A stretch of 45,996 bases of DNA from Deferrisomatales bacterium (GCA_033551855.1 JAWSUI010000031.1:1-45996); one strand, 5' to 3'; shown: positions 10,466-45,175, counted from the stretch's first letter. The notes: generated by a model from the sequence alone, not told the origin. Numbers and translations are program-made.

Positions 10466-10786
10466 ATCCGCCACCACACTGTGGGGCGGAGTCCGGGAGC
10501 CCAGGAGTGCAGCCCCGCACCGCATCCACCGACTCGACGAGGCGGGCGCAAGCGGGTGAAGTGCCCATGACCTTCGGGTCACCCTGAGGGATGAAACGCC
10601 GGCCATTCGCGGGACGGTTGCCCTCACCCCAGGCCCCTCTCCCGGGGGGAGAGGGGATGCAAGGAAGGTGGCTTCGTTCATAGGCCCGGCGCACCGGGGA
10701 CCGCCGGGACACCTCTTCCAACGGCCGCGGGTTGCGGGGCGAAACGCAGGGGCTCCCGGACTCCGCTTGCCGACCAGCCGGAGGAT
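10466..10786 (+). repeat. Repeat A copy (198 bp) interrupted by repeat B (123 bp)
   Basis: Collinear with 15164..15361 and 25170..25367; length 321 = 198 + 123. Confidence 0.9.
10563..10685 (+). repeat. Repeat B nested inside repeat A
   Basis: GCCCATGA...TCATAGGC ends; TGACC-TTCG-GGTCA hairpin; matches 2046..2168. Confidence 0.85.
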
Positions 10787-10804
10787 CCAGGCTCCAGAAA
10801 TCGC

Positions 10805-10833
10805 TTGACCTTCGCACGGCACTCCGGTAAAAA
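10805..10833 (+). promoter_or_regulatory. sigma70-like promoter
   Basis: TTGACC-N17-TAAAAA, 18 nt after the repeat A end. Confidence 0.5.
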
Positions 10834-10922
10834 CGCTTCCCTTTTCCTTCCGGCGGGGATTCCCTTCCCCCTGGCGACCAGGACACCCGCGCCGGCAGAG
10901 CCCGGCGAGAAAGGACGAGACG

Positions 10923-11471
10923 ATGAGACCGACGGACGTGACCCTCTTCAGCGGAGGCGCCCGGGGGGCCGAGGAAGCCTTCGGGGAGGCAGCCGCCGCC
11001 CACGGGGTGGCCGAAGTCCACTACACCTTCGAGGGCCATCACATCCAGCGGACCGCCGGCCACAGGACCATCGCGCCGGCCGACCTGTCCAAGGGCGACG
11101 TGAGCATGGCCGAGGTCTCCAAGCGCCTGCACCGCGACTATTCCACGCGGCCCTGGATGCGGCAGATCCTGCAGAGCATCTGGCACCAGGTGAACAGCGG
11201 CTACCAGGTCTTCGTGGTGGGGGAGATCCAAGGGGACGGAACGGTGAAGGGTGGAACCGGCTGGGCCGCAGAGCTCGCCAAGATGTGGAACCGCCCCCTG
11301 CACGTCTTCGATCAGGAGAAGGGGCACTGGTTCACCTGGCGTAACGACACCTGGGTGGAGGAGGTGCCCGTCGTCTCGCGGAACACCCTGTGCGGGACCG
11401 GCACGCGGAGCCTCAACGAGGCCGGCCGACGCGCGATCGCGGACCTCTTCGCGCGCTCGTTTCCCAAGTAA
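10923..11471 (+). CDS. Hypothetical protein, probable SLOG-superfamily Rossmann-like fold
   Basis: N-terminal SGGARGAE, KGGTGWA and GTR motifs; strong coding bias. Confidence 0.7.
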   Translation: MRPTDVTLFSGGARGAEEAFGEAAAAHGVAEVHYTFEGHHIQRTAGHRTIAPADLSKGDVSMAEVSKRLHRDYSTRPWMRQILQSIWHQVNSGYQVFVVGEIQGDGTVKGGTGWAAELAKMWNRPLHVFDQEKGHWFTWRNDTWVEEVPVVSRNTLCGTGTRSLNEAGRRAIADLFARSFPK

Positions 11472-11752
11472 GGCTCTGACACGGAGCAGCCGTCTCAGCG
11501 ACGGGCGTCGAGGCGCCTGACCGGCGAGGCGCGACGACGCGGAACAGCCCAGCCGTTGCAGGGAGGAGCAACGCCGCCGGTCGGGATGCATCGGCGCCCG
11601 GAACGACACGGCCATTCCGTGTCGGGCCCCAACCTACCGAACCTCACCGCCCGAACGGCAACGGCCGTCCGGGCCCTGCGGGCCACGGACGGCCTTCTCA
11701 TTTGCCGCAAGGGTCGAGGGTCCAGACGCCCACGCGGACCCGCCCCGGAGTG

Positions 11753-12496
11753 CTACGCCCAGCCCCCCTCCGAACGGATACGGTCGTAGGCCTGTTGCAC
11801 CTCCAGGAACTTCCGGTTGGCAAGCTCCCGGAACTCGTCCCCGAGGTGGGATACCCGGTCCGGGTGGTACTTCTTGACCAATTCCCGATAGGCCCGCTTG
11901 ACCTCCTCCGCGGTGGCCGAGGGGGGAACCCCCAAGACCTCGAAGTCGGCATGGGGGCGTGCGCGGGCCCGCAGGTTCACGACATCGGCGGCCGAGATCC
12001 CCAGCAGCGCCGCCGCCCGCCCAAAGACGGCCTCCTCCGGTGGGGTCATGCGGCCGTCGGCCAGGGCGACGTCGAGCATGCACTCGACCAGGAGGAGCCG
12101 AGTGGCGTAGTCGGCGCGGCGGGCGAAGTCGAGACACAGGGCGTCGAAATCGACCCCCTCCCGCAGGAAGCGCTTGATCAGTTCCCGTACGATCTCCAGG
12201 GATTCCCCCCGATAGCCGAGGCGCTCGGAGAAGAACGTCCGGACCGCCCGGACCTCCTCCGGGCGGATCTCGCCGTCGGCCTTCATCATGGCCGTCAGGA
12301 CGCCGACGAGGCTGGCCACGAAGTGCAGCTCTTGCTGCTGCTGGCGAACCCGGGGGTCGGCCTCCGGCCGCAGGGGCGCCCCGCCGGGGGAGGCGTCCTT
12401 GACGTAGTGGCCGATGACGCCGCCCAGGACGGCGCCCAGGGGCCCTCCCAGGAAGTAGCCGATCCCGGCGCCGAGGAGCTTGCCGCTGAGACCCAT
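11753..12496 (-). CDS. DjlA-like co-chaperone (TM + TerB-like + J domain)
   Basis: GKLLGAGIGYFLGGPLGA N-terminus; MKADG; C-terminal J domain with HPD. Confidence 0.88.
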   Translation of the reverse strand: MGLSGKLLGAGIGYFLGGPLGAVLGGVIGHYVKDASPGGAPLRPEADPRVRQQQQELHFVASLVGVLTAMMKADGEIRPEEVRAVRTFFSERLGYRGESLEIVRELIKRFLREGVDFDALCLDFARRADYATRLLLVECMLDVALADGRMTPPEEAVFGRAAALLGISAADVVNLRARARPHADFEVLGVPPSATAEEVKRAYRELVKKYHPDRVSHLGDEFRELANRKFLEVQQAYDRIRSEGGWA

Positions 12497-12499
12497 GGC

Positions 12500-13717
12500 T
12501 CACTGCAACCGGTGGAGCACGGCACCGTTCGACAGGAAGAGCACCCCCCCCCCGAACACCAGCGGTTGGGCGTGCAGCCCAGGCCCGGGGGCGTACCGCC
12601 CCCGCACTTCCCCGTTCGCTGCGTCCAGACTGAACAGACTGCCCTCCGAGGCTCCGACCACGACGCTCCGCCCCGCCAGCACGGGGGAGGTCGGCAGCCC
12701 TCCGTCCAGGGGGGTCCTCCACTGGACCTTCCCGTCCTTGCGGGAGAGGGCCGCCAGCTCACCGCCGGCCGTGCCCACGTACAGCCGCTCGTCTCCCACG
12801 GCGAACCAGCCCACCGCCTCGACCGGCTGGCTCCAGAGCTCCTCCCCGGTGGCGGCGTCCAGACACACCGTCGGCCCGCGAAGCGCGCCGGCGTAGACCC
12901 TTCCGTCCCGGAAGGAGGGCCCGGCGGCGACGTCGCCGAAGAGGGCGGCGGCTCCCAACTCGACCCGCCAGACGACCCTCCCGAGGTCCTCTTCCAATGC
13001 CACCAGGTGACCGTCGGCGAAGCCCGCGTAGACCCTGCCGTCGCCGTAGCTCAGGCCCAGGCTCCGCCACAGGCTGTCTCGGCGCGGGAACCCGCGCCCG
13101 TACTGCCACAGCGGCCTGCCGGTGAGCGCCTCCAGGCAGAAGACGTTCTGGTCCGCCACCGCGATGTACACGCGGCCGCCTCGGACCAGGGGGGCCGACA
13201 CCACGGGGTAGCCCGTGGGGAAGGTCCAGACCTCCCGACCGGACAGGTCCAGGGCCCGCACCGTGCCCTGGTCGTCCCCGACGATCAAGAGGCCTCCGGC
13301 GTAGGCGGCCGTGGCGTACACGCGGCCTTCGGTCGGCACGCTCCAAAGGAGGGTCCCGTCGAGCCGGCGGGCCTCGAAAACCCGGCCGGAGTGGCCCACG
13401 TAGATCACCCCGCCCACAATGAGGGGCATCGCGTGCTCCGTGGGCTTGTAGCCCGGGCGCGCCTTGAGCGGGATGGTCTGGGAGACGGTCCACTCCCCCG
13501 GGGCCCGGTCCGGCGCCCGCGAGGTACGACCCGGGTCTCCCGCCTCCATGGTCCACGGAGGGGGCTCGGGAGCCGGCGCCTGCTCGGCGACCCGATCCAT
13601 GGAGAGCGCCCCGCACCCCGCGAGGAGCGCCGCGGCGAGAGCGGGAAAGAGTGCCGCGGCCGCGACGCATCGGGACCGCCCGCCCCCGACTCCGCCCTCT
13701 CGACGCCGGCGCGTCAC
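12500..13717 (-). CDS. PQQ-like beta-propeller lipoprotein (BamB-like)
   Basis: LLAGC lipobox; repeated TG..LW blades; start uncertain. Confidence 0.8.
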   Translation of the reverse strand: MTRRRREGGVGGGRSRCVAAAALFPALAAALLAGCGALSMDRVAEQAPAPEPPPWTMEAGDPGRTSRAPDRAPGEWTVSQTIPLKARPGYKPTEHAMPLIVGGVIYVGHSGRVFEARRLDGTLLWSVPTEGRVYATAAYAGGLLIVGDDQGTVRALDLSGREVWTFPTGYPVVSAPLVRGGRVYIAVADQNVFCLEALTGRPLWQYGRGFPRRDSLWRSLGLSYGDGRVYAGFADGHLVALEEDLGRVVWRVELGAAALFGDVAAGPSFRDGRVYAGALRGPTVCLDAATGEELWSQPVEAVGWFAVGDERLYVGTAGGELAALSRKDGKVQWRTPLDGGLPTSPVLAGRSVVVGASEGSLFSLDAANGEVRGRYAPGPGLHAQPLVFGGGVLFLSNGAVLHRLQ

Positions 13718-14370
13718 GGGGAGCCCCCTTCGAGGCCGGCCAGCCGCTCCATGTTCCGCCGCAATGCCTCGTACTCGGCCTCGGTCAAACCTGCCCCCCG
13801 CGCCACGATCCGGGCAAAGGTCTCGGGGATGAGATCCCCGGGGGCATGGGCATCGGTGTTGAGCACGAGGGGCGCGCCGGTCCGGCGGGCCATCGAAGCG
13901 ACGTGGCCGTTGGCCAGGCTGTGCCCCTTGCGAGCCGAGATCTCCAGGTGAACGCCGCCCTCCGCCGCCAGGCGGGCCTCCTCCTCCGTGATGAGGCCGG
14001 GGTGGCTGAGGATGTCCGCGCCCGCCTCGATGGCCGCCCGGTTCGTCCCGGGTTCCACGGGCTCCACCGGGCTTTCCCCGTGCACGACCACCAGTCGCGC
14101 GCCCAAGCCCCTCGCCTCGGCCACGTAGCGGCCGATGAGGGCCGGGGGCACGTGGGTGATCTCGACCCCGGGGATGCAGCGGATCGAACGGGCGTGGGAG
14201 TTCTCCTCGCACGCACGGATCAAACGGGGCACGATCCAATCGAGGGTCGACATGTCGGCGTGGTCTGCCAGCGCAATGGCTCGAAGACCCACTGCCTGGG
14301 CCCGGCGGACCAGCTCGGAGGGCACCAGCTCGCCGTCCGAGAAGAGGGTGTGGGTGTGCAGGTCGATCAT
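13714..14370 (-). CDS. PHP-domain phosphoesterase (histidinol-phosphatase-like)
   Basis: DLHTHT, ADH, GVEITH and NTDAH metal ligands. Confidence 0.88.
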   Translation of the reverse strand: MIDLHTHTLFSDGELVPSELVRRAQAVGLRAIALADHADMSTLDWIVPRLIRACEENSHARSIRCIPGVEITHVPPALIGRYVAEARGLGARLVVVHGESPVEPVEPGTNRAAIEAGADILSHPGLITEEEARLAAEGGVHLEISARKGHSLANGHVASMARRTGAPLVLNTDAHAPGDLIPETFARIVARGAGLTEAEYEALRRNMERLAGLEGGSP

Positions 14371-14419
14371 CGTCTCCTCGAACGGCTTGAGGGCGCCCGA
14401 GGCGCCCTCAAGGGGTGTG

Positions 14420-14968
14420 TCACGCGGCGGGGTAGCGGTTCCAACGGACGAACTGGGCACGCTCCTTTCGGGGCGGGACCTTGGTCTCCCCGGCGGGATA
14501 ACCCAGAGGGGTGAGGGCCACCACGTCCACCTCCGGCGGCGCCTGGAGTACGCGCGCCGCCGCGGCCGCATCGAACAGCCCGACACAGACGGTGCCGAGC
14601 CCCTCCGCCCGGGCGGCGAGCATGAAGTTCTCCATGGCCAATCCCACGTCGAAGAGCAGCCAGTCGCCGCGGGGAGTGGCCGCCTCGCCCTTCTTGAACC
14701 CGGCGCGCCCCCTTCGGCCGCAGAATGCCAGGACGAGGGGGGCCTCCGCCATGGCTCGGTAGGCCGGGTTCGTTTCGGCGAGGGTGTGTTGCAGCGCCTG
14801 CTTGACCGCGGGATCCGACACCGCGACCACCTCGCAGCACTGGGTGTGGGCCCAGCTCGGTGCCCACTGGGCGGCCTCGAGAAGCCGATCCAGCACGTCA
14901 TCGGGCACCGGGTCGGACAAGTACTTCCGGGCGGAACGCCGGTCCCGGATCGCCTGGTAGAGCTCCAT
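14420..14968 (-). CDS. Nitroreductase family protein
   Basis: RRSARKY, APSWAHTQ, GLGTVCVG, LGYP. Confidence 0.9.
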   Translation of the reverse strand: MELYQAIRDRRSARKYLSDPVPDDVLDRLLEAAQWAPSWAHTQCCEVVAVSDPAVKQALQHTLAETNPAYRAMAEAPLVLAFCGRRGRAGFKKGEAATPRGDWLLFDVGLAMENFMLAARAEGLGTVCVGLFDAAAAARVLQAPPEVDVVALTPLGYPAGETKVPPRKERAQFVRWNRYPAA

Positions 14969-15163
14969 GGCCTACTCCCCGATTGCGCAAGCGCACGGCA
15001 AAAGCCCGTCGATTCGGGCTTCCCGTATCTACCACGGTGCACCGAGCAGCGTCAACACAGGCCCCGGACACACAGGCCCCGGGCGGAGAAACCGTCGGGC
15101 CGGGGCCTTCCGGCCGTTCCGGGGGGTGGGCAGCCGGTAGCCGCCGCAGCCGACCCTCCCGGA

Positions 15164-15361
15164 ATCCACCACCACCTCGCGGGGCGGAGGCCGGGAGCCC
15201 CGGAGAGCGGCCCCGTACCGCATCCACCGACTCGACGAGGCCTGCCCAGGGGGGTGAAGCCCGGTGCACCGGGGACTGCCGGGACACCTCTTCGAACTGC
15301 CGCGGATTGCGGGGCGAAACCCAGGGGCTCCCGGACTCCGCTTGCCCACCCGCCGGGGGAT
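15164..15361 (+). repeat. Repeat A, full-length copy (198 bp)
   Basis: ATCCACC...GGAT ends; collinear with the copy at 25170. Confidence 0.9.
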
Positions 15362-15380
15362 TCGGGACGAGGGTTCCCGG

Positions 15381-15409
15381 TTGGCGTCCCGAGCGGATTG
15401 TTGCAGAAT
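15381..15409 (+). promoter_or_regulatory. sigma70-like promoter
   Basis: TTGGCG-N17-CAGAAT, 19 nt after the repeat A end. Confidence 0.45.
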
Positions 15410-15451
15410 GAATCGCCTAGATCCTTCGTGCGCCCTTGCCCCCAGAGCACC

Positions 15452-16417
15452 ATGAGCCCCATCCCGAGCCCCTCCCGAACGGCCTCCTCCCCCGCGGGCG
15501 CCCCCCCGAGAGCCTTGGGCGCGGCGGCCCTGCTCGCCTTCTGCCTGGCGGCCCTGGCGGCCGGCCAGGCGGTCTCCGTGGCCGTCACCGGCAAGGAGGT
15601 GTGCCTCGGCGAAGGGTGCGCCATCGTGGGGAGGCTGACCAGAATCTCGCCCGGGTGGTTCAATCTCCTCGGCGCGGTCGTCTTCACGGCAGCGGGGGCC
15701 CTGGCGCTCCGGGCCCGCCGATCCGTTTCCCCCGTGCCGCTGGCTCTTCTGGGAGCCGTGGCCGGCGCGGCCCTGGCGGCCGAGGGCGTCCTCTTCGCGT
15801 ACCAGGCCCTGGTTGCCCGGGCCTGGTGCCCCTTCTGTCTTCTCATCCTGGCCGGGGTCGCCGGCCTCAACCTGCTGCTGGGCCCGCGCGCGGCCCTGCG
15901 GGGGGCAGCCGGCTTCACCGCCGTTGCGCTGATCTTCTCCCTGCTGACGTTCCTCCCGCCGGATGCGACGCTCGCGGACGGGACGCTGGCCGTGCGGCCC
16001 GGCACGGAGCCGGGAAGAGGGGCCGATCTCGTCCTCCTGTTCTCGGAGGACTGTCCCCACTGCACCGCGGTCGTCGAAGCCCTCCGGGCGAACCCGCGGT
16101 GCACCGTGCGCCTCAACCCCGTGTCCGAGCTCTCCCCTTCCTACTGGCCGGAATTGGGCCGGGAGCCCTCCTATGATCCCGGGGTCAACGTCGCCGCTGC
16201 CCGGCTCCTGGGGATCGACACGATCCCCATCGTGATCGCCCGGGAGGCCGGCACCATGAGGGTCCTGACCGGAGAGGCTCCGATCCTCCGGTACATCGAG
16301 GAACACTGCGGGGAGCCCCGGGCGCCGGTCCCGGACCCGCTCCGGGTGCCGTGGGGGGGCGGATCCCTGCTCGGTCCGGCCGAGGACGGCTGCGGTCTGT
16401 TGCTGGAGTGCGACTAG
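15452..16417 (+). CDS. VKOR-like membrane protein fused to a thioredoxin-like domain
   Basis: TM helices, loop C-X4-C, WCPFC, then FSEDCPHC. Confidence 0.72.
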   Translation: MSPIPSPSRTASSPAGAPPRALGAAALLAFCLAALAAGQAVSVAVTGKEVCLGEGCAIVGRLTRISPGWFNLLGAVVFTAAGALALRARRSVSPVPLALLGAVAGAALAAEGVLFAYQALVARAWCPFCLLILAGVAGLNLLLGPRAALRGAAGFTAVALIFSLLTFLPPDATLADGTLAVRPGTEPGRGADLVLLFSEDCPHCTAVVEALRANPRCTVRLNPVSELSPSYWPELGREPSYDPGVNVAAARLLGIDTIPIVIAREAGTMRVLTGEAPILRYIEEHCGEPRAPVPDPLRVPWGGGSLLGPAEDGCGLLLECD

Positions 16418-16600
16418 CAGGCTGCGTGCGCCCCGGGGAGGGGGCGCCGAAATACGGCGCTCGAAGAGCATGGTGATTCCTGGGGGTTCGAAGGGGCCGT
16501 CCCCGAGAAGATTTCCCGGGACTGGGGAATCGGACGCGCCGCCGGCGCGCCGCGAGGGCGAGCCCCGGGACCGGGAGAGTCAACCCGCAGCGGAAGAACC

Positions 16601-16815
16601 GGCTCATCCGGGAAATGACCGGGTACGCGTGTCCGGGGACGACCGGGCGGGCCCGGCCACGCAGGCGCACGGCCGCCCGACGGGAGCACCCGCTTCGGGA
16701 GTCGCGATGCCGCAAGGATTCCTGACGCGGCGGGGGACCGCACCTGCCGCACAGTCCGGCATCGTCCGGCGGAGGGGGCGGGCCCACCCGGTCGTTTACC
16801 GGAAGAACCGAAAAA
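16601..16815 (+). repeat. Repeat C copy
   Basis: Collinear with 37970..38177; shared GGGCCCACCCGGTCGTTTACCG. Confidence 0.85.
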
Positions 16816-16926
16816 CCCATGGGGGGGCTTTCAGCACCCTGCGAGACGTCCCGGGGAGAAGCGCCCCGCGGCAGCCAACCGCGAACCCGTCCACGTGGGA
16901 CGTCCACCGCATCCCATCCCCTCTCG

Positions 16927-16970
16927 ATCGGCATCGGCATCGGCATCGGGATCAGGATCAGGATCGGATT
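16927..16970. repeat. Hexamer tandem repeat (ATCGGC/ATCGGG/ATCAGG)n
   Basis: About 7 units read directly. Confidence 0.85.
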
Positions 16971-16999
16971 CCCCACGGGAACCCCGACCCGGGGGCAGA

Positions 17000-17088
17000 G
17001 CGCATCCCGCGGGCTCGCGCCCGCGGCGAGGGCGCGGCGCATGGGGACCTCTCGGCGCAGGCGCATCCCGCGGGCTCGCGCCCGCGGC
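17000..17088. repeat. Two direct 28-bp REP-like palindromes
   Basis: GCGCATCCCGCGGGCTCGCGCCCGCGGC at 17000 and 17061. Confidence 0.85.
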
Positions 17089-17102
17089 CCCGCCGCGGCG
17101 TC

Positions 17103-17726
17103 TCACCCCCGCGCCAGATCCTTGCCGATCTCGAAGGCCCCCCGGTTCCCGGGGAAGTCCGGCAGGCGCTCCCGGATCACCTCGAGGAGCGTCCCCTCGG
17201 AGACGGGCAGGTCCCCCAGCTCCGAAGCCAGCCCGAGGGCAACCACGTTGACCCGTTTGAGGTTTCCGAACCGCTCGAGGCAGGCCGCTTCCATGGCGAC
17301 GGGGTGGACGCGGGGCGTGACCTCGCGCAACATCTCCCACAGGGCCCCCAGGGGCGGGTAGACCGCCGAGCCGAGTCGGACCGCCGTGGGGATGCGGGGA
17401 GAAACCTCGGAGATCACCACGGAAGACGGGTTCACGTACGGGAGGCACCGGGCCGCCTCCAGGGGCTCCAGGCTCAACAGCAGGTGGGCTCCCCCCGGAG
17501 GGATGGCGCCCCCGAAGGGTGCGAAACGGGGATCCCCCGGCTCGGCCTCCTCGTGGACCCGGTAGCGCACGTTCGAGGTGACCGGCCCCTCCCGCTGGGC
17601 CCCTCCCCGCCGCTCCGCACCCGCTACCTCCAACCCCTGCCGCAGGCCGGCGAGCTTGAGCAGGGTGCCGAGGGTCACCACGCCCTGACCTCCGATCCCC
17701 GCCAGGACCACGTCGCAGCGTCTCAC
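17103..17726 (-). CDS. iorB: Indolepyruvate:ferredoxin oxidoreductase beta subunit
   Basis: AGIGGQG, GAQREGPVTSNVR, LEPLEA, NVVALG. Confidence 0.85.
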   Translation of the reverse strand: MRRCDVVLAGIGGQGVVTLGTLLKLAGLRQGLEVAGAERRGGAQREGPVTSNVRYRVHEEAEPGDPRFAPFGGAIPPGGAHLLLSLEPLEAARCLPYVNPSSVVISEVSPRIPTAVRLGSAVYPPLGALWEMLREVTPRVHPVAMEAACLERFGNLKRVNVVALGLASELGDLPVSEGTLLEVIRERLPDFPGNRGAFEIGKDLARG

Positions 17727-20936: not shown

Positions 20937-21011
20937 GAGCCCCACCCCTCCTTCCTCCAGCGCACAGCGCCCCCCCTCCGGCCGACGGCCCGGAACACCG
21001 GCGGCCGCCCG

Positions 21012-21052
21012 TTCTTAACACCCGGGCGGGGGCCGGTCAACCGGCCCCCGCC
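21012..21052 (-). promoter_or_regulatory. sigma70-like promoter of the metV operon, with a 13-bp inverted repeat over the -35
   Basis: TTGACC-N17-TAAGAA; GGCGGGGGCCGGT-CA-ACCGGCCCCCGCC at 21025..21052. Confidence 0.5.
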
Positions 21053-21205
21053 ACGGATCTCGCCTCCCCTGTGCCCACCCACACCGGGCCCGCCCCAAGC
21101 CACCGCCACCTGTCGGGCGGGACCGGGGATGCCCGGAGTCGCCGCGACCCCGCCTCGACCGAGGCACAGAAACCCTGCGGGAACGGTAACGCCTCGTCCG
21201 GATAT

Positions 21206-21266
21206 CGCGGATTGCGGGGCGGAGCGGAGGGGCTCCCCGACCCCGAGCACCTGCCAACCGGAGGAT
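21206..21266 (+). repeat. Repeat A, right-arm partial copy
   Basis: CGCGGATTGCGGGGCG...GGGGCTCCC...CCGGAGGAT. Confidence 0.8.
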
Positions 21267-21285
21267 CCAGGACCCGGCGAGCCCC

Positions 21286-21313
21286 TTGACGCGCAGGCCG
21301 CGGGGCATACAAT
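21286..21313 (+). promoter_or_regulatory. sigma70-like promoter of the ktr operon
   Basis: TTGACG-N16-TACAAT, 19 nt after the repeat A end. Confidence 0.7.
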
Positions 21314-22741: not shown

Positions 22742-22745
22742 CGCG

Positions 22746-23399: not shown

Positions 23400-23400
23400 C

Positions 23401-25064: not shown

Positions 25065-25169
25065 GAAACGCCTCGGCTGGCTCGGGAGCGGGGAGCCGGG
25101 ATTCTAGCGTCCTGCCGCGTCCCGAGGCAAGGGCGGCCCGGCGCCCGGTCCGGGGTCCCGGCCCACAGA

Positions 25170-25367
25170 ATCCACCACCACATTGTGGGGCGGAGTCCGG
25201 GAGCCCTGGAGTGCAGCCCCCCACCGCATCCACCGACTCGACGACGCCGGCGCAAGCGGGTGAAGCCCGGCGCACCGGGGACTGCCGGGACACCTCTTCG
25301 AATGGCCGCGGATTGGGGGGCGAAGCGCAGGGGCTCCCGGACTCCGCGTCCCAACCAGCCGGTGGAT
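25170..25367 (+). repeat. Repeat A, full-length copy (198 bp)
   Basis: ATCCACC/GGTGGAT termini; perfect 17-bp inverted arms GCGGAGTCCGGGAGCCC / GGGCTCCCGGACTCCGC. Confidence 0.9.
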
Positions 25368-25385
25368 GCTGGGCCCGATTCCCTC

Positions 25386-25414
25386 TTTACACCCCCCCAC
25401 TGCCCTGCTATAGT
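25386..25414 (+). promoter_or_regulatory. sigma70-like promoter of the rimP operon
   Basis: TTTACA-N17-TATAGT with extended -10 TG, 18 nt after the repeat A end. Confidence 0.75.
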
Positions 25415-32645: not shown

Positions 32646-32729
32646 GGCTTCGCCGGTTCGACGGGCTTGGGCGGCGGCCGACCACGCGCCTGCCGGGGTC
32701 GGGCGTCGAAGGCGACCGGCATCCGTCGC

Positions 32730-32828
32730 CGCACCGGGGAATCCGCCGGGACGCCCCTTCGACGTGCCGGGGTTTGCGGGGCGAAGCGGAGGGGCTCCCC
32801 GACCCCGAGCACGTGCCAGGCAGTGGAT
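32730..32828 (+). repeat. Repeat A, right-half copy
   Basis: CGCACCGGGG...TGCGGGGCGAAGCG...GGGGCTCCC...GTGGAT. Confidence 0.8.
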
Positions 32829-32847
32829 CCGGGAGGCGCCTGGCTCC

Positions 32848-32877
32848 TTTACGCCGGCGCTCCATTCGTGTTAGAAA
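32848..32877 (+). promoter_or_regulatory. sigma70-like promoter of rpsO-pnp
   Basis: TTTACG-N18-TAGAAA with extended -10 TG, 19 nt after the repeat A end. Confidence 0.5.
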
Positions 32878-35452: not shown

Positions 35453-35522
35453 TACCAGGGACCGTAGCGAGAACGGGCGCGGCGAGAGCCGCGCCCGTTG
35501 CCGTTTCCCCTCCGGCCCTCTT

Positions 35523-37277: not shown

Positions 37278-37369
37278 GCCGGCCCTCCACTTCCGCCGGA
37301 AGGAGCCTCGACGGCGGGCCCCGGGGGGCCCCTCTCCCTCCCTCGGGGTGCCCGAAGCTCACGGGACCG

Positions 37370-37897: not shown

Positions 37898-37910
37898 CGA
37901 CTCTCCTCGC

Positions 37911-37959
37911 GTGACGGGTCACGGATGACGGAAGACCGGTAAACGGTGACGGGTGACCC
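37911..37959. repeat. Degenerate heptamer tandem repeat (GTGACGG) x7
   Basis: gtgacgg gtcacgg atgacgg aagaccg gtaaacg gtgacgg gtgaccc. Confidence 0.75.
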
Positions 37960-37969
37960 GTTCCAGACG

Positions 37970-38177
37970 GGCTCGTCCGGGGAACGACGGGTCTCCGTGA
38001 CCGAGGGCGGCCGGGGGGGTCCCACGGCGCAGGCGGACGACCGCTCGACGGGAGCAACTGCTTCGGGAGCAGCAATGCCGCGAGGATTCCGGATGCGGCG
38101 CGGGAGCGCACCTACCTTACAGCCCGGCATCGTCCGCCTGCGTAGCCGGGCCCACCCGGTCGTTTACCGAAAGAACC
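37970..38177 (+). repeat. Repeat C copy abutting the ybaB stop codon
   Basis: Collinear with 16601..16815. Confidence 0.85.
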
Positions 38178-38495
38178 TCAAAAGAGCCCGGGGATGTTCA
38201 GGCCCATCCCACCCGCGATCTTGCCCATCTCCGAGGCCACCATCTCCTGGCTCTTCTTCACCCCCTCGTTCACCGCCGCCAGAACGAGATCCTGCAGCAT
38301 CTCCACGTCCTCGGGGTCGACCACCTCCCGGTCCACGGTCAGGGAGAGGATCTCCTGCTTGCCGTTCACGGTGCAGCGCACCATCCCCCCCCCGGAGCTC
38401 GCCTCCACGGTCCGCGAGGCCAACTCCTCCTGCATCTGGGCCATCTTCTTCTGCATCTGCTGCGCTTGGCGCATCATGTTCCCGAGCCCCTTCAC
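38178..38495 (-). CDS. ybaB: YbaB/EbfC nucleoid-associated protein
   Basis: MMRQAQQMQ, SGGGMV, EMLQDLVLAAVN. Confidence 0.95.
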   Translation of the reverse strand: MKGLGNMMRQAQQMQKKMAQMQEELASRTVEASSGGGMVRCTVNGKQEILSLTVDREVVDPEDVEMLQDLVLAAVNEGVKKSQEMVASEMGKIAGGMGLNIPGLF

Positions 38496-38532
38496 TCCCG
38501 CACCTCCTCTCGCCGACTCCTGAGCCGCTCGG

Positions 38533-40266
38533 TCAGGGCTTGAGCACCCGGACCTCTTCCACATCGCCTTCGAAGATCTCCATGGCCTCGCGCACCAGGG
38601 GGTGCTCCAGGGCCTCTCGCTTGGCGCTTCGCGCCCGATCGGTCTCCCGGGCCCCATCCCGACCCCGCCCCCGCCCCTGCCGCGCCTCGAACCGGAGCTC
38701 CACCCGGGCACCCGGACCCGCCGCCTCGGCCAGGATCCGGGTGAGCAGCTCGAGCTTGGAGCGGACGAAGAACTCGTGCCCCGGGTCGTCCAGGACCACG
38801 GCGGCCACCTTCCCGTCGGGGTCCCAGGCCTCCAGCCTCCCGTGGGCCCGAAGGACGTGCCAGAAGGGCCGGTTGGCCCCCTCCGCCCCCCGGAGGAGGG
38901 CCTCCCAGACCTCCGCCTCCCCCCGGGGCACCGGAGCCTCGCCGGCCGGGACGGCCGCCACGGCCGCGGAGGGAGCCGCCGCAGCTTCTGCCGAGGCCCC
39001 CGCAGCTCGATCCCCCGGGCCCGGGTCCCGGGGCGCCGGGTCCGCGGTCTTCCCCGCCGCGGCCTCCACCCCGGTGTGCCCGGAGGCCGACGGCCTCCCC
39101 CCGGCGCCTCCTCCTCCCCCTTCGCCCGCCCCCGGGCCGGCGCGCGCCCGGGCCAGGACCTCGGAGAGCGGGAGCACCGGGGGCAGCTTGGCCATCTTGA
39201 GCAGGGTCATCTCCAGCAGGGGCCCGGGCCGCGAGGCGCCGCGAAGGGTGTCGATCCCCCGGCTGAGGATGTCGAACAGGGCGTGGATCTCCTCCCAGGA
39301 GGTCGGGACCAGAAACTCCCGGGCGGCCGCCACCTCCTCGGCGGCGAGGTCCACCAGATCCTCCGCCTCCCCCAGGGCCTTGATCACCGTGAGGTCCCGA
39401 AAGACGTCCAGCAGATCGTGGCCGAACCGCCGCACGTCGTACCCGAAGCGCTCCGCCTCGGCCAGCGCCTCCACCACCCGGCGGGCGTCGCGCTCGACCA
39501 CCGCGCGGGCCACCCCGAACAGGAGGTCGCGGTCCACGACCCCCAACACGTCGCGCACGTCCTCGTAGGTGACGGACTCGCCGGCATAGGAGAAGACCTG
39601 GTCGAGCAGGCTCTGGCCGTCCCGAACGCTCCCTTCCGCTTCCCGGGCCAGCGCCGCCAGGCTCTTCTCGTCCGCCGCGATCCCCTCGGCGTGCGCCACG
39701 TCGGCCAGCAGCGCCGTCATCTCCCTCAGCGACAGGCGCTTGAAATCGAACTGCTGGCAACGGCTGAGGATGGTAACCGGGATCTTGTGGGGGTCGGTCG
39801 TCGCCAGGACGAAGACGACGTGGGCCGGGGGCTCCTCCAGGGTCTTCAGGAGGGCATTGAAGGCCGCCGTGGAGAGCATGTGCACTTCGTCGATGATGTA
39901 CACCCGGTGGGGGCCTCGCACCGGCGGATAGCGCACCGCCTCCCGCAGTCGCCGCACGTCCTCCACGCCGGTATTGGAAGCCCCGTCGATCTCCAGGACG
40001 TCGCCGGAGCGGCCCTCTGTGATCTCGCGGCAAGAAGGGCACGCGTTGCAGGGGGTCGGCGTCGGGCCCGAGACGCAGTTGAGCGCTTTCGCCAGCACCC
40101 GCGCCGCCGACGTCTTGCCCACCCCGCGAATGCCGGTGAACAAATACGCGTGGGCGATGCGTCCCGAGGAGATCGCATTCCGGAGCGCCCGGACGATGTG
40201 GTCCTGTCCCCGGATCGCCTCGAAGGTCTGGGGACGCCACTTCCGCGCTAGGACGAGGTAGGACAT
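38533..40266 (-). CDS. dnaX: DNA polymerase III subunit gamma/tau
   Basis: LARKWRPQTF, GVGKT, IIDEVHML, LKTLEEPP, SRC. Confidence 0.97.
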   Translation of the reverse strand: MSYLVLARKWRPQTFEAIRGQDHIVRALRNAISSGRIAHAYLFTGIRGVGKTSAARVLAKALNCVSGPTPTPCNACPSCREITEGRSGDVLEIDGASNTGVEDVRRLREAVRYPPVRGPHRVYIIDEVHMLSTAAFNALLKTLEEPPAHVVFVLATTDPHKIPVTILSRCQQFDFKRLSLREMTALLADVAHAEGIAADEKSLAALAREAEGSVRDGQSLLDQVFSYAGESVTYEDVRDVLGVVDRDLLFGVARAVVERDARRVVEALAEAERFGYDVRRFGHDLLDVFRDLTVIKALGEAEDLVDLAAEEVAAAREFLVPTSWEEIHALFDILSRGIDTLRGASRPGPLLEMTLLKMAKLPPVLPLSEVLARARAGPGAGEGGGGGAGGRPSASGHTGVEAAAGKTADPAPRDPGPGDRAAGASAEAAAAPSAAVAAVPAGEAPVPRGEAEVWEALLRGAEGANRPFWHVLRAHGRLEAWDPDGKVAAVVLDDPGHEFFVRSKLELLTRILAEAAGPGARVELRFEARQGRGRGRDGARETDRARSAKREALEHPLVREAMEIFEGDVEEVRVLKP

Positions 40267-40288
40267 GGCCAGGCCCAAGGAAGGGAGG

Positions 40289-40429
40289 GACGGAGGTGGG
40301 ATCCAGGGATGGCTAGGCTGCCTGCGGCGCCCGAGGGGCGTGGCTGCCGCTGCTTCCTTCCGGACCTGACGGGGTTCACCGCGCCTTCGTCGCGCAGGGC
40401 CCAGCCATCCCTGCAACCCACCTCGCCCG
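40289..40429 (-). ncRNA. ffs: Signal recognition particle RNA
   Basis: Helix 8 GUCAGGUCCGGAAGGAAGCAGC inside a long closing stem; ends approximate. Confidence 0.93.
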
Positions 40430-40567
40430 GAGGCGGGACAACACCGGAATCCCAGGGGCCGGTTCCGCGGCTTCCGCCCCCGCAGCTCCGAGGAGCGGCC
40501 CCCGCCGGACGCTCGCCGCGTCACGGGGGCTACCCGCCCGGAACGGCGCAGCCCCCGGGGAAAAGAC

Positions 40568-40657
40568 TGGCGGAGAGGGAGGGATTCGAACCCCCGGTAC
40601 CCGTAAAGGTACAACAGATTTCGAGTCTGCCGCCTTCGACCTCTCGGCCACCTCTCC
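40568..40657 (-). tRNA. tRNA-Ser(CGA)
   Basis: GGAGAGG acceptor stem, anticodon loop CU-CGA-AA, long variable arm, GGTTCGAATCC, encoded CCA. Confidence 0.97.
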
Positions 40658-40665
40658 GCGAACGT

Positions 40666-41115
40666 TCAGGACTCGGGTTCCCCGCCGCACCGCCGGCGGC
40701 GGAAGAACCGCCGCATCAGGTCCGCAGCCTCGGCCTCGCGAACCCCCCGGACCACCTGGACCCGATGGTTGAGCCGCGGGTCGTCCGACAGATCGAAGAG
40801 GGTGCCCGCCGCGCCGGCCTTCGGGTCCGCCGCCCCGTACACCAACCGGGGCACGCGGGCCTGGAGCAGCGCCCCCATGCACATCGGGCAGGGCTCCAGC
40901 GTGACCACCAGCGTGGCTTCCTCCAGCCGCCACCTTCCCAGGAGCCGCGAGGCCTCGCCGATCGCCAGGCACTCGGCGTGCGCCAAGGGGTCGGCCCGGG
41001 CCTCCCGGAGGTTGTGGGCCCGGGTGAGCACCCGCTCCCCCCAGAGGAGCACCGCCCCCACCGGCACCTCCTCAAGGGCCAGGGCCGCCTCCGCCTCGGC
41101 TAAGGCCAACCCCAT
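40666..41115 (-). CDS. tadA: tRNA adenosine(34) deaminase
   Basis: EVPVGA, HAE, EPCPMC; promoter-like TTGCAA-N17-TATCTT at 41168..41140. Confidence 0.93.
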   Translation of the reverse strand: MGLALAEAEAALALEEVPVGAVLLWGERVLTRAHNLREARADPLAHAECLAIGEASRLLGRWRLEEATLVVTLEPCPMCMGALLQARVPRLVYGAADPKAGAAGTLFDLSDDPRLNHRVQVVRGVREAEAADLMRRFFRRRRCGGEPES

Positions 41116-41304
41116 CACCTCGCCGATAAGAGGGGCGCGAAGATAGCACGAGGCCTGCTCGGTTGCAACGGAACGGGAGGCAAGCACCATCGGAACACAC
41201 ACGGGTCTGGGGGGGCCGGGAGCGGGCCGGAGGGCCTTCGGGCCGGCTGCCCGCTTCCGGGCATCCGCCGGATAGGACTGTAGCACCGGGCGGAAGGAGC
41301 GGGC

Positions 41305-41425
41305 AACCAACCGCCCCGGCACGTGCCCGGGGCCGGGGAGCCCCTCCGCTCCGCCCCGCAATCCGCGGCCATGCGAAGGGGTGTCCCCGCAGGCTCCGGT
41401 GCGCCGGGCTTCACCCGTTTGCACC
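41305..41425 (-). repeat. Repeat A, right-half copy on the minus strand
   Basis: Reverse complement GGGTGAAGCCCGGCGCACCGG...GCCGCGGATTGCGGGGCGG...GGGGCTCCC. Confidence 0.85.
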
Positions 41426-41562
41426 GGGGGCGGAGGGCAGGACGCACGGACACCGGTGGCCACGCACACGGTGAACCCAGGGAAACCGCCCCCTGCGGCG
41501 CAGGTCGATGCGACATCTCGGGCCGGGGCGGTCGGGCCCGCCCCCTCCAGAAGGAAGGTGCC

Positions 41563-42033
41563 ATGGCGCTCCCTTGCCACCCCGACGACGCTGTGCCCGA
41601 CCTCACCGTCCTCCTCCCCGAGGGTTCGCCCGCGTCCCCGGCGGTCCCGGAGGACGTCCGTCGGCGGTTCGGCACCTGCTGGAAGGCCCTCCGGGACCAA
41701 GGGTTCGACATCGAGGTGCGCCGGAACTCCGTGCGCGTTCGCCACGCCGGCCAGGGGTTCGAGCAGGTGATCCAGCTGTCCGGCGAGGACGACCTGGGGG
41801 AGAAGAGGGAGCTCTTCCGCGCCTTGCGGTCGGCCTTCGGGGGCTTGGTGGAGCGATGGCTTCCCCACATCGTCCAGCCGAGCCCCACGGTGACGTGGCC
41901 CTACCTGAACCTGAAACAGGTCATCGAGATCTGTCAGTGCGTGCGGGCCCTCCGGAGAAGGAGCGCCGCGGTCGGCGCGAAGGGCTTCCGTCCGCGAAAC
42001 GGTGCGGCGCCCTCCGTGCCGGCTCCGTGGTAG
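41563..42033 (+). CDS. Hypothetical protein
   Basis: AAGGAAGG SD, ATG, coding-like third positions; no family recognised. Confidence 0.65.
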   Translation: MALPCHPDDAVPDLTVLLPEGSPASPAVPEDVRRRFGTCWKALRDQGFDIEVRRNSVRVRHAGQGFEQVIQLSGEDDLGEKRELFRALRSAFGGLVERWLPHIVQPSPTVTWPYLNLKQVIEICQCVRALRRRSAAVGAKGFRPRNGAAPSVPAPW

Positions 42034-42058
42034 GGCGGCCTCCCCAAGGTGTCGTGTC

Positions 42059-43621
42059 CTACCCGCCGAAGAGGATCAGCCCGGACTGCACCCCACCGAC
42101 CAGGGCACCGAGAACGCCTCCCCACCACGTGATCATGCGCAACTCCCGCCCGGCGACCGCCAAGATCACGTTCTCGACCTCTTCCGGGGAGAAGGCCAGG
42201 ATCTCGCGCTCGATGAGGCTCTTCACGTCGACGATTCCGAGGATCGCAGGCACCTGGGCCGAGATCACGGGCATGAGGTGATCGAGGCCCAGCCCGGTGA
42301 CCTCCGCCAGGAGCGCGCGGGGCACGTGCCGGTCCAGGCGTCCCAGGGGGGCCCGGAGGGAGGCCTCGATCAGGGCCGGGGCCTCACGCTCGACAAAGGC
42401 CCGCAGCCGGCCGGCACCGGCGCGGGCCGCGAGGTGCTCGGCCCACCCCCGGGCGCCCTCGGCCTCGACCCCTGCCGCTCGAGCCAGCTCTCCGAGATTG
42501 GTCCGGAACAGCGCGCTCAGCTCCCGGTCCAGCACGAGAGCCAGGGCCTGGGCGACCTGGGGCCGTCGCAACTGGCCGCAGACCCATTCCGTGGCCTGAT
42601 CCCAGAGGCGATCGACGGCCTCCCTCGGCAGTGCCTCCAGGAGCTGCGCGGGCGTCCGTCCGAGGACCCGGTCCAGGGCATCCGTCACCCCCTGCTCCAG
42701 CCGGGCTCGATTCTCCTGCTGGTACACCAGCTCGCCGAGGCGGTGGAGGTTGGCGTCCACGATCTCGTCCGCCTCACGAAAGATCCTTCCCCGGCCCATC
42801 AGGGCCGCCTGGCGCACCAGGTTCTTCACCACCCCCCCCTCGGTTTCCAGCAGGTATGCTTCGATCCCCCCCCGCACCGCGGTCTTGATCTTCTCGACGT
42901 TGGCGCGGGACAGGAGGGCCTCCTCGAAACGGCGCAGCAGCGCCGGCACGGCGGAACGCACCGCCGCCACCCCGGCGGCCCGCACCCCGTCCGGCAGGAG
43001 GCTCGCCAGCGGGGCGTCCGTGTTCGCGAGGGCAACCAGGGCTCGGGCGACCCCCGGGCGCAGCCTGGCTTCCAGGTCGCCCGCCGCCAGCAGCTCCGCG
43101 GTCTTGCCCAGCGCCAACTGCACGAACCACCGCTCCTCCCCCCGCAAGAGGTCGGCCGCGCTCCGCCGCAAGAGAGCCTCCAGGACATGCTCCAGGAACC
43201 CGATCCCCTCGGGGGTGCCGAGCCACTGCTCCGCGGCGGCCCCCGCCTCCTGTGCCACCCGGAGCAGGGCCTTTCCCAGGGCCTCCTCTCTCTCGGGGCC
43301 CAGGGCACCGGCGAGGCTCGGGTACTCCCGGCCCAGGTAACGCTCCAGGAGGTCCGAGATCATGGCCTGGAGGGCAATGCGCACTTCGGGCCCGGCAAGG
43401 CGCTCTGCCACGCTCCGCTCCCGGAGGAGCTCCGACACCACCGTGCGCGAGACGGTGGCGGCGATCTCGGCCTTGCGGCGGGGCACCATGCCGTGGAAGC
43501 GCAGGCCCAGGATCCGGATCTCCCGGTAGGGCCGAAAGAGCATGCGGATGGCCAGGGCATTGGTGGCGAACCCGATGAGGAAGCCGAAGGCCGGCGGGAG
43601 GGCGACGCGCAGGAGGTCCAT
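42059..43621 (-). CDS. DUF445 family membrane-anchored protein
   Basis: IGFATNALAIRMLFRP N-terminus; ELRMITWWGGVLGALVG C-terminus. Confidence 0.88.
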   Translation of the reverse strand: MDLLRVALPPAFGFLIGFATNALAIRMLFRPYREIRILGLRFHGMVPRRKAEIAATVSRTVVSELLRERSVAERLAGPEVRIALQAMISDLLERYLGREYPSLAGALGPEREEALGKALLRVAQEAGAAAEQWLGTPEGIGFLEHVLEALLRRSAADLLRGEERWFVQLALGKTAELLAAGDLEARLRPGVARALVALANTDAPLASLLPDGVRAAGVAAVRSAVPALLRRFEEALLSRANVEKIKTAVRGGIEAYLLETEGGVVKNLVRQAALMGRGRIFREADEIVDANLHRLGELVYQQENRARLEQGVTDALDRVLGRTPAQLLEALPREAVDRLWDQATEWVCGQLRRPQVAQALALVLDRELSALFRTNLGELARAAGVEAEGARGWAEHLAARAGAGRLRAFVEREAPALIEASLRAPLGRLDRHVPRALLAEVTGLGLDHLMPVISAQVPAILGIVDVKSLIEREILAFSPEEVENVILAVAGRELRMITWWGGVLGALVGGVQSGLILFGG

Positions 43622-43734
43622 GGCCTACTCCAGGTGGGAAGGGCCGCGCGCCGGGGGGGCGCGGCGCGGCCGAGGGCGCAGGCTCCGGGACACCCCTCTT
43701 CGCAGTGGGCTCGCGTCCGGCGAGGGTCTTGCCC

Positions 43735-43970
43735 TTGACAGACCCCGAACCATCCGCCTACTGTCCTGGGTCATCGATCCGCTGCGATACCGAAGCCGCC
43801 GATGCACCCGTTGCGCAAGGCGCGAGATCGTTCTTTCCCCTGACGGACCCACTGAGTTTCCGGCAGGGCCCCCTCCCCCGAGACATCGATCCGCGGGCCG
43901 GGGCGCGGGGGCGCCGGCGTCACACCGGCCGCACAAATAGCGACTCCCCCGGAGGAACCGGGGGAGTCGC
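43735..43970 (+). ncRNA. Candidate sRNA unit (coordinates include the promoter)
   Basis: TTGACA-N18-TACTGT, no SD-led ORF, ends at a strong hairpin. Confidence 0.35.
43933..43970 (-). terminator. Intrinsic terminator-like hairpin
   Basis: GCGACTCCCCCGG-N5-CCGGGGGAGTCGC, followed on the minus strand by TATTTGT. Confidence 0.7.
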
Positions 43971-44024
43971 CGAACCTTCCTGGCACGCTTGCTACAACGC
44001 GGGGTCGCCGCGGGCAGTTTCCCG

Positions 44025-44093
44025 TCATGCCCAGGACCGTCTAGGGCACCCCTCGCTGCAGTGGGCGACCCTCGGGATCATGAAGCGCTTCAT
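44025..44093 (-). CDS. Candidate 22-aa small protein MKRFMIPRVAHCSEGCPRRSWA
   Basis: Strong SD AGGAGAGGAGGTGA; own promoter TTGACA-N17-TACTCT (44170..44142); downstream terminator. Confidence 0.45.
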   Translation of the reverse strand: MKRFMIPRVAHCSEGCPRRSWA

Positions 44094-44156
44094 GGACTCT
44101 CACCTCCTCTCCTGTTGCCGTGATTTTGTGACACGTAACTCAGAGTAAGCAGCACT

Positions 44157-44966
44157 GTGGACCCTGTCAAGCGGCCGGCCCCGGTCATCGCCCTTACCAC
44201 CGACTTCGGCCTGGTGGACCCGTACGCCGGCATCCTCAAGGGCGTCCTGCTGGGTCTGTGCCCGGAGGCCCGGGTCGTGGACCTGACCCACGGCGTTCCC
44301 CCCCAGGACGTCCTCGCCGGCTGCCTCGCCCTGGAGGCGGCACGCCCCTACTTCCCGCCGGGCACCATCCACCTGTGCGTCGTGGACCCGGGCGTGGGAA
44401 CCGGGAGGCCCGCGGTGGCGGTCAGGACCCGGCGAGACGTCTTCGTCGGCCCCGACAACGGCCTGTTCTCCTTTCTTCGGGGCGACGAGATCCTCGAGGT
44501 CCGCTCCCTGGAGAGCGCGGCCGTCCGCCTGCAGCCGGTCAGCCGCACCTTCCACGGGCGCGACGTCTTCGCCCCGGCTGCCGCCCACCTCGGCCGGGGC
44601 CTGCCGTGGGCGGACCTGGGGCCTTCCCGGCCACTTCTCGGCCCCTCGCTCCTCCCGGAGGCCGAAGTCTGGGCCCAGAGGATCCGGGGTGTCATCCTGG
44701 GCTTCGACCGCTTCGGAAATGCGGTCACGAGCATACGCGCAGAGCGGGTGCCGTGGACGCCCCGGCGGGTCCTCGTGGGCGGCGCGGTGGTGCCCTACGC
44801 CTCCACCTACGGGGACGTGCCGCCCGATGCGCCCCTGTGCCTCGCGGCGTCCTCGGGCCGCATCGAGGTCGGCGTGCGAAACGGGAGCGCCCGGCGGCGA
44901 CTCGGCCTTGCGCGGGGGACCCCGATCGTCCTGGAAGCGCCGGAGGGGGAGCCGGGGGGGCCCTGA
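44157..44966 (+). CDS. SAM hydroxide adenosyltransferase / chlorinase family (DUF62)
   Basis: LTTDFG, VVDPGVG, GPDNG, TFHGRDVF, DRFGN. Confidence 0.92.
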   Translation: MDPVKRPAPVIALTTDFGLVDPYAGILKGVLLGLCPEARVVDLTHGVPPQDVLAGCLALEAARPYFPPGTIHLCVVDPGVGTGRPAVAVRTRRDVFVGPDNGLFSFLRGDEILEVRSLESAAVRLQPVSRTFHGRDVFAPAAAHLGRGLPWADLGPSRPLLGPSLLPEAEVWAQRIRGVILGFDRFGNAVTSIRAERVPWTPRRVLVGGAVVPYASTYGDVPPDAPLCLAASSGRIEVGVRNGSARRRLGLARGTPIVLEAPEGEPGGP

Positions 44967-45016
44967 GCGTAGCCGCGCCCCGCATCGATGGAGGCGCACG
45001 CGAACCGCTGGGGATC

Positions 45017-45127
45017 GGTAAGGCCTGCGCACCGGGGCCTCGCCCGGGATGCCTCAGTCGCCGTGCCGCGGAATGCGGGGCGGAGCGGCGGGGCTTTCGG
45101 ACCCCGCTCGCCGACCATCCGGTGGAT
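45017..45127 (+). repeat. Repeat A, diverged right-half copy
   Basis: GCGCACCGGGG...GCCGCGGAATGCGGGGCGG...CCGGTGGAT. Confidence 0.75.
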
Positions 45128-45146
45128 CGAGGGCGTTGCCGCTCGC

Positions 45147-45175
45147 TTGACACTGCGGGGGGGAGCGTTTAGATT
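45147..45175 (+). promoter_or_regulatory. sigma70-like promoter
   Basis: TTGACA-N17-TAGATT, 19 nt after the repeat A end. Confidence 0.75.

Follow-up and report, generated by a model that had tools for sequence, protein, structure and literature searches.

Repeat copies and promoters in the window

The stretch of DNA analyzed here, called the window throughout, is a contig of 45,996 nt (JAWSUI010000031.1:1-45996; C31 in our numbering) from the draft genome of a Deferrisomatales bacterium (GCA_033551855.1). That genome, denoted G000, amounts to 4.24 Mb at ~70% G+C. The subject is a dispersed repeat, repeat A, which is a miniature inverted-repeat transposable element (MITE) and whose right end lies at a nearly constant distance upstream of sigma70-type promoters. 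Copies in the window are listed with their promoters in Table 1; all promoters next to repeat A copies, here and below, were predicted from sequence.

Table 1. Repeat A copies, associated promoters and related features in the window, with sites of tandem duplication elsewhere in G000
Feature	Position	Strand	Details
MITE copy 1	10461..10791	+	model 2-102 at 10463-10563, model 98-205 at 10682-10789; nhmmer
Target duplication of copy 1, CTCC	10457-10460 and 10792-10795		alignment with empty G001 site
Repeat B, ~118 nt	10564..10681	+	splits copy 1 in its middle
Promoter 1	10805..10833	+	-35 TTGACC 10805-10810, 17-nt spacer, -10 TAAAAA 10828-10833; 13 nt past element
MITE copy 2, full length	15159..15366	+	nhmmer model 2-204, 186 bits
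Promoter 2	15381..15409	+	-35 TTGGCG, 17-nt spacer, -10 CAGAAT; 14 nt past element
MITE copy 3, full-length type but diverged and shortened	21093..21271	+	model 4-205, nhmmer 51.6 bits
Promoter 3	21286..21313	+	-35 TTGACG, 16-nt spacer, -10 TACAAT; 14 nt past element; TrkH-type gene downstream
MITE copy 4, full length	25165..25372	+	nhmmer 204 bits
Target duplication of copy 4, GCCC	25161-25164 and 25373-25376		sequence reading
Promoter 4	25386..25414	+	-35 TTTACA, 17-nt spacer, -10 TATAGT; 13 nt past element; rimP downstream
MITE copy 5, right arm only	32729..32833	+	nhmmer model 105-204
Promoter 5	32848..32877	+	-35 TTTACG, 18-nt spacer, -10 TAGAAA; 14 nt past element; rpsO downstream
MITE copy 6, internal fragment	41334..41427	-	model 82-175; upstream of tadA-like deaminase gene
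MITE copy 7, left terminus missing	44948..45132	+	nhmmer model 27-205
Promoter 7	45147..45175	+	-35 TTGACA, 17-nt spacer, -10 TAGATT; 14 nt past element
Tandem-duplication sites	C60 7286, C99 2696, C4 40258, C17 50482, C74 1467, C59 19433		G000 contigs

A first-pass annotation of the window had described six copies ending in a GGAT motif, each followed by a -35 hexamer after a gap of 18, 19, 19, 18, 19 and 19 nt and by a -10-like hexamer 16-18 nt beyond that; all of these readings were exact. Because the GGAT motif lies inside the terminal inverted repeat, so that the element is 5 nt longer (..GGATCCAGG), the true distance from element to promoter is 13-14 nt. The annotation was also correct that the genes downstream of the copies are unrelated to one another, and that the minus-strand copy departs from the rule: copy 6 is an internal fragment and shows no spacing because its right terminus has been deleted.

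Spacing and orientation across the genome

A 206-nt profile of repeat A, built from 33 full-length copies, returned 228 nhmmer hits in G000, of which 219 were non-redundant and 91 full length. Offsets were counted from the last position of this model. Where 70 nt of flank were available (154 right ends), a TTG began at offset 14 in 54 cases and at offset 15 in 28, together 82 of the 154, and each of the other offsets between 0 and 44 had 0-6 TTG starts. Left ends read outwards had a TTG at offset 14 or 15 in 11 of 128. When right ends with a further copy behind them were set aside, TTG was found at offsets 13-16 in 94 of 143. A strict rule for the -35 hexamer, spacer and -10 hexamer at offsets 13-16 was satisfied by 29 of these 143 right ends, as against 3 of 128 left ends, a mean of 0.1 (maximum 1) in shuffled flanks and 0.38 (maximum 3) at random anchors upstream of genes, matched for distance. 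The genome-wide distance histogram, one of the checks proposed in the first-pass annotation, gave a sharp peak at right ends with shuffled and position-matched controls below 1. The spacing is real and far beyond chance.

Gene positions in G000 were taken from a crude home-made gene caller, according to which ~85% of the genome is coding. By the same caller the copies are nearly all intergenic, and in 144 of 153 cases the nearest gene downstream shares the strand of the copy, the median distance being ~100 nt. Between the element and the -35 hexamer no position is conserved except the first G and the C preceding the TTG.

Two sister species, one of the same genus (G001) and a second (G002), served for comparison. 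G001 holds at least 41 copies of the repeat and G002 at least 29. Four weak matches were found in G005, and the same query had no match in G003 or G004. Among 40 loci fetched from the two sister species, TTG stood at offsets 13-16 in 29 of 40 right ends compared with 1 of 19 left ends.

Much-reduced copies also occur. A solo right-end remnant of ~30 nt (G000 contig C71, 5171-5200, minus strand) lies 13 nt upstream of TTGACG-18-TACAGT; it escaped the profile search, and landing events therefore outnumber the 219 hits. A mini-copy of ~75 nt (locus L084, contig C34, 140-215) is internally deleted with both termini kept, and lies 13 nt upstream of TTGACA-17-TAGGAT, which is followed by a 373-aa open reading frame (ORF) outside any Pfam or NCBIfam family.

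Anatomy and mobility of repeat A

At ~206-208 nt the unit has no room for a transposase gene, and its ends are CC...GG. Its termini read 5'-CC(A/T)G(A/G)ATCCACC..., the conserved ends being CCAGAATCCACC on the left and GGTGGATCCAGG on the right (CCTGGATCCACC when the right end is read inwards). The 58-nt arms are 72% complementary. In 35 of the 91 full copies a 208-bp unit is bounded by an exact 4-bp direct repeat (shuffled pairings <1), around which a G before and a C after are favored. Target duplications of 5-9 bp were tried on the same 91 copies and fitted more poorly than 4 bp. An exact 9-bp match at the ends of the 206-nt model was found in 0 of 91, and in at most 1 at any boundary shift tested.

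Comparison of orthologous sites supports mobility. The G001 site corresponding to window positions 10461-10791 is empty, with both TTGACC and the -10 of promoter 1 conserved. This comparison bears out the view of the first-pass annotation that the gap and promoter sequences, which differ from copy to copy, are not part of the element. The intergenic region that follows has, in G000, copy 2 before the promoter of a plus-strand gene (promoter 2) and, in G002, an inverted copy of another subfamily before the divergent promoter; neither promoter has a copy beside it in the other species. G000, G001 and G002 all retain the rimP promoter. Decayed remnants resembling the right arm lie upstream of it in G001 and G002, and because they have diverged, some insertions must be old.

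Copies are also stacked. Eleven head-to-tail pairs have nothing but the target duplication between their members. Of eight pairs measured, five were 71-89% identical and two ~99%, the median for random pairs being 74%. Since those five pairs are as dissimilar as random ones, different subfamily members entered the same position. Taken together, the duplications, the empty site and the stacked copies indicate that the landing place is set by the promoter and not by local sequence. Repeat A is thus a mobile non-coding element, a MITE.

Link to IS1380-family transposases

No transposase gene flanked by the ends of the MITE, of the kind the first-pass annotation had thought worth seeking, was found in the G000 draft; a truncated candidate is present in G002. 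Contig C7 of that genome encodes the C-terminal portion of a transposase of the IS1380 family (NF033539, E 1.7e-11); a run of N interrupts the gene, so that the fragment reaches only 44 bits. About 220 nt past its stop codon stands a terminus, ..AGGCGGTGGATCCTGG (also read ..GACAGGCGGTGGATCCTGG), followed by 13 nt and then by TTGACG-17-TAAATT. Over its last 14-17 nt this terminus is identical to many right ends of the MITE.

A sample of 401 genomes from the phylum contained relatives of the G002 transposase in 25. Full-length relatives, ~506-530 aa in length, reach 212 and 209 bits with the NF033539 model, for which the cut-off is 180, and match Pfam DDE_Tnp_1_4. The clade is large: 5756 of 8000 scored proteins fell within it at E 1e-30, under the name "IS1380 family transposase", from sources that include Shewanella, Chlorobium and Syntrophales. 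The insertion sequences (IS) of this clade have the ends CCYTGATYCACC and CCTAAATCCACC, and the elements finish in ..AGGYGGTGGATTYNGG.

These elements share the spacing of the MITE. In the genome loci of full-length relatives that had a recognizable end and flank, TTG occurred 12-15 nt past the right end in 18 of 22 (12 of the ends were found by pattern and 10 placed by eye). A metagenome scan yielded 80 loci, 68 with the end motif and 51 with at least 45 nt of flank, and in 40 of these 51 a TTG was located at 12-15 nt. Where both ends of an IS could be found, TTG was seen at 32 of 44 right ends and 5 of 43 left ends, and 18 of the 32 right-end cases had TAnnnT 16-18 nt further on. The flanks resemble complete promoters with no conserved spacer. 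Two copies of one IS in a single genome (L098 and L121) each lie upstream of a different promoter. In genome loci with a recognizable left end, the target duplication was clean in two of four (TTAA and GTAT). Another copy of the clade (L122, G194:C79) lies 13 nt upstream of a TTGACA/TAAGAT promoter before a tRNA-like gene; going by this case, promoters of RNA genes would be hit too.

Other candidate helpers were considered and set aside. G000 has three DDE_Tnp_1 genes, each present once and without the termini of the MITE. Apart from the 373-aa ORF behind the mini-copy, the ORFs that adjoin truncated copies belong to ordinary genes (hydrolase, PFK, flavodoxin-like, aminotransferase). No Mutator-like transposase was found in G000 or G002, where PF00872, NF033572 and NF033529 and the IS256, ISKra4 and ISLre2 models had no match. 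G001 does contain an ISKra4-family IS (L027, contig C79, 1110-2767), located in an AT-richer stretch, with 26-nt inverted repeats and a transposase of 239 bits, over the cut-off; its inverted repeats are unrelated to those of the MITE, with which it has no similarity.

Proposed mechanism

We think it quite likely that the MITE is moved in trans by a lineage of IS1380-family transposases that places the right end of its substrates beside promoters. The shared termini and spacing suggest that an IS1380 enzyme would mobilize this particular MITE. The transposase would make a 4-bp staggered cut ~10-13 bp upstream of the -35 hexamer, near -50 to -46 from the transcription start, and the right inverted repeat would thereby come to lie 13-14 bp before a sigma70-type -35 hexamer, counted to the first T of the hexamer. 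The nearly constant orientation of the element would follow from its unequal left and right inverted repeats. Copies pile up before unrelated genes because the core promoter stays intact, which would explain how ~200 copies can reside in a compact genome without broken genes.

Of the first-pass proposal of a non-autonomous mobile element targeted by promoter-bound RNA polymerase, the first half, a non-autonomous mobile element at a fixed spot upstream of promoters, stands; recognition of the polymerase we infer. Two modes of recognition can be envisaged. The transposase may contact the promoter-bound RNA polymerase holoenzyme, through sigma region 4 or the alpha C-terminal domain, or it might itself read the TTGACA box. 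By analogy with other guided elements our guess tips slightly toward contact. In E. coli the alpha C-terminal domains touch DNA near -50 to -46.

Several results weigh against this reconstruction. As to the spacing, 49 of 143 right ends in G000 and 11 of 51 metagenome loci have no TTG in the expected interval (offsets 13-16 and 12-15 nt, respectively), and an IS1380 element in G005 that ends in ..GGATTCAGG has none at 13-14 nt (one case). The promoters are predictions from sequence. Selection against insertions elsewhere must also shape the set of surviving copies, an effect that sequence comparison cannot separate from target choice. As to the helper, the G002 element is cut by N and has nothing in common with the MITE beyond the terminal 14-17 nt. 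G000 has no assembled IS1380-family transposase above the cut-off (the sole hit reached 23.5 bits), no long element with the inverted repeats of the MITE was found there, and a search of the draft by left and right partial hits and by inverted-repeat pairs found no autonomous partner with its termini. Of 43 metagenome contigs, only 3 showed an exact target duplication of the IS (0.2 after shuffling); these 43 are short contigs of a multicopy element and possibly chimeric.

A broader reading, toward which we lean narrowly, is that promoter homing is inherited across the large IS1380 clade, that sigma70-guided integration at about -50 has arisen at least twice, and that tandem duplications seen beside some copies are footprints of a protein boundary at the -35. 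If homing is clade-wide, guided integration would have arisen at least twice because IS1380 transposases are unrelated to Mutator-like enzymes. The duplications, of 12-16 nt and starting 0-4 nt past the element end, occur in 6 of 143 flanks on the right and 1 of 128 on the left. Those that are clear (C60, C99, C17 and C4) begin where the element stops and reach precisely to the first T of the -35. Three further cases with small indels were recognized by eye. The boundary would be formed by sigma or by the transposase during transposition. Alternatively, and as a guess, read-through of the right end of the IS1380 type followed by re-insertion at the same promoter could yield such duplications. 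A few promoters that lack the element also have a similar duplication right next to the -35, one of them being the divergent promoter at ~15056-15085 in the window; at element-free promoters, flank duplications near the -35 number 1-3 of 235 at each boundary offset, a count too small for a conclusion.

Alternative explanations

The first-pass annotation had offered a second possibility, a co-opted regulatory module whose right arm is selected as an activator, insulator or terminator-hairpin site near -50 to -60. We judge this unlikely. The element is a long hairpin-forming palindrome, its position matches that of upstream activators and alpha C-terminal domain contacts in E. coli, and some insertions are old, as at rimP. 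The claim that truncated copies always keep the promoter-proximal arm survives as a bias, with 43 right-arm-only remnants and 23 left-arm-only; this bias agrees with a module but is also expected of a transposon, since deletions on the right side remove the promoter. Against a module, the sister species have the same promoters without the element, the downstream genes are unrelated, and only the termini are common to the subfamilies, random pairs of copies being 74% identical at the median. The element tolerates internal deletions, nested insertions and stacking, and the transposase-bearing relatives in AT-rich hosts keep the spacing with quite different interiors. A regulatory role thus finds little support and is not needed.

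It is very unlikely that insertion was random and that purifying selection then left only the harmless copies just upstream of promoters. Most random insertions would indeed be lost from a genome that is ~85% coding, and the surviving copies are nearly all intergenic. Selection would nevertheless permit any upstream position rather than a peak 2 nt wide, and it explains neither the orientation (82 versus 11) nor the stacking of different subfamily members in the same 4-bp target. Random anchors matched for distance to genes gave 0.38 where right ends gave 29 of 143.

That a Mutator-like transposase of the ISKra4 or ISLre2 type moves the MITE, with the IS1380 link a coincidence of short termini, we hold to be extremely unlikely. 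The spacing and orientation are close to those given for p-MULT 3/4 elements in PMC3942029, as is the terminal base C, and G001 encodes the ISKra4-family transposase noted above. The duplication is nevertheless 4 bp and not 8-9 bp, searches of G000 and G002 for ISKra4, ISLre2 and IS256 transposases turned up none, the inverted repeats of the G001 element are unrelated, and both the termini of the MITE and its 13-14-nt spacing are found on IS1380 elements.

Finally, IS1380 members are described in PMC9330008 as carrying outward promoters and mobilizing DNA beyond their right end, but the idea that the mobile unit extends past GGATCCAGG to include the promoter, on the pattern of ISEcp1 and ISPme1 with their outward promoters, is hardly credible when a target duplication lies between element and -35, spacers and promoters vary by copy, the empty G001 site has kept its promoter, and two copies of one IS stand beside different promoters.

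Relation to known elements

The first-pass annotation knew of no bacterial repeat with such a spacing rule, yet one has been described: TnGBS, ISLre2 and elements of the ISKra4 group insert in a fixed orientation 15-17 bp upstream of sigma-A -35 boxes and generate 8-9-bp direct repeats (PMC3942029, 2014). According to that paper, contact with the initiation complex was proposed by analogy with Ty3, and orientation was ascribed to unequal inverted repeats. The MITE resembles these systems in its fixed short distance to the -35, its promoter-proximal right inverted repeat and the intact core promoter (PMC3942029). The midpoint of the duplicated target, calculated from 13-14 bp with a 4-bp duplication and from 15-17 bp with 8-9 bp, falls ~11-12 bp upstream of the -35 in both. 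The MITE differs from these systems in being a non-coding element with a link to the unrelated, not Mutator-like, IS1380 family (DDE_Tnp_1_4), in its 4-bp duplication and in its distance of 13-14 bp. Its host, a GC-rich member of the Thermodesulfobacteriota, also sets it apart from the TnGBS-type systems. The element in the window is non-coding, and the word MITE is absent from the main text of PMC3942029. The MITE works like p-MULT 3/4 elements (TnGBS, ISLre2 and ISKra4) but is not a member of that group.

Within the IS1380 family the closest comparison is with ISEcp1 and ISPme1, with which the MITE shares termini that start with CC; its own target duplication is short, at 4 bp. For the family ISfinder gives a duplication of 4-5 bp and CC ends. 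IS1380 members are presented in PMC9330008 as carriers of outward promoters and mobilizers of adjacent genes; unlike the elements studied here, those of the ISEcp1 and ISPme1 literature are not credited with homing to host promoters among the traits that source describes. The clade is also distant from plasmid-borne members: a search of a plasmid collection in protein mode gave only four weak actinobacterial tblastn hits and no ISEcp1 at E 1e-10.

Like ordinary MITEs such as the Correia elements of Neisseria, repeat A is small, non-coding, multicopy, intergenic and hairpin-forming, with inverted repeats and target duplications. Unlike repeat A, Correia elements contribute parts of a promoter themselves and do not land beside promoters, and no classical MITE is known to keep a fixed distance and orientation to a promoter. 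A more distant likeness is to yeast Ty3 and Ty1, which integrate at a fixed position beside the host transcription initiation machinery, an analogy drawn in PMC3942029. Ty3 and Ty1 differ in being eukaryotic retrotransposons that rely on contacts between integrase and Pol III factors; there is no homology, and for the MITE any such contact is hypothetical.

The targeting behavior is therefore already known, and its carriers, an IS1380-type family and a MITE, are the new part. Literature searches (outside ISfinder and TnPedia) returned no report of promoter targeting by an IS1380 element or a MITE. The present case would add a second, unrelated transposase family and a first MITE to the bacterial elements that choose promoters as landing sites, and the way in which transposases find promoters would become comparable between families. 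If homing is clade-wide, it would extend to thousands of members in the Thermodesulfobacteriota, Shewanella, Chlorobium, Syntrophales and many uncultured organisms. In uncultured bacteria the copies could mark genuine sigma70 promoters at no cost, and a promoter-tagging tool based on such an enzyme is conceivable. For annotation the lesson is that these repeats should be labeled neither as RNA genes nor as regulatory motifs.

Other features of the window

An Rfam gathering scan of the window detected only a signal recognition particle RNA and a tRNA, with nothing over the repeat; both genes are on the minus strand, at 40308-40406 and 40571-40657. Beside them is the ORF at 40666-41868 associated with copy 6. 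Because its tadA-like deaminase occupies the last 150 residues only, the extension over the MITE fragment is not coding.

Two further repeats were noted. Repeat B, of ~107-118 nt, gave 28 BLAST hits in the genome, with an inverted match at ~2046-2174 in the window. It is nested at model positions ~98-102 of the MITE in five loci (C31, C14, C23, C47 and C3), which suggests that it has its own target preference inside repeat A. The third repeat, of ~206-210 nt, ends in ..GGGCCCACCCGGTCGTTTACCGGAAGAACC and is located at 16600-16810, 37967-38177 and 45875-45914 in the window; it gave 136 BLAST hits in G000 and many in G002.

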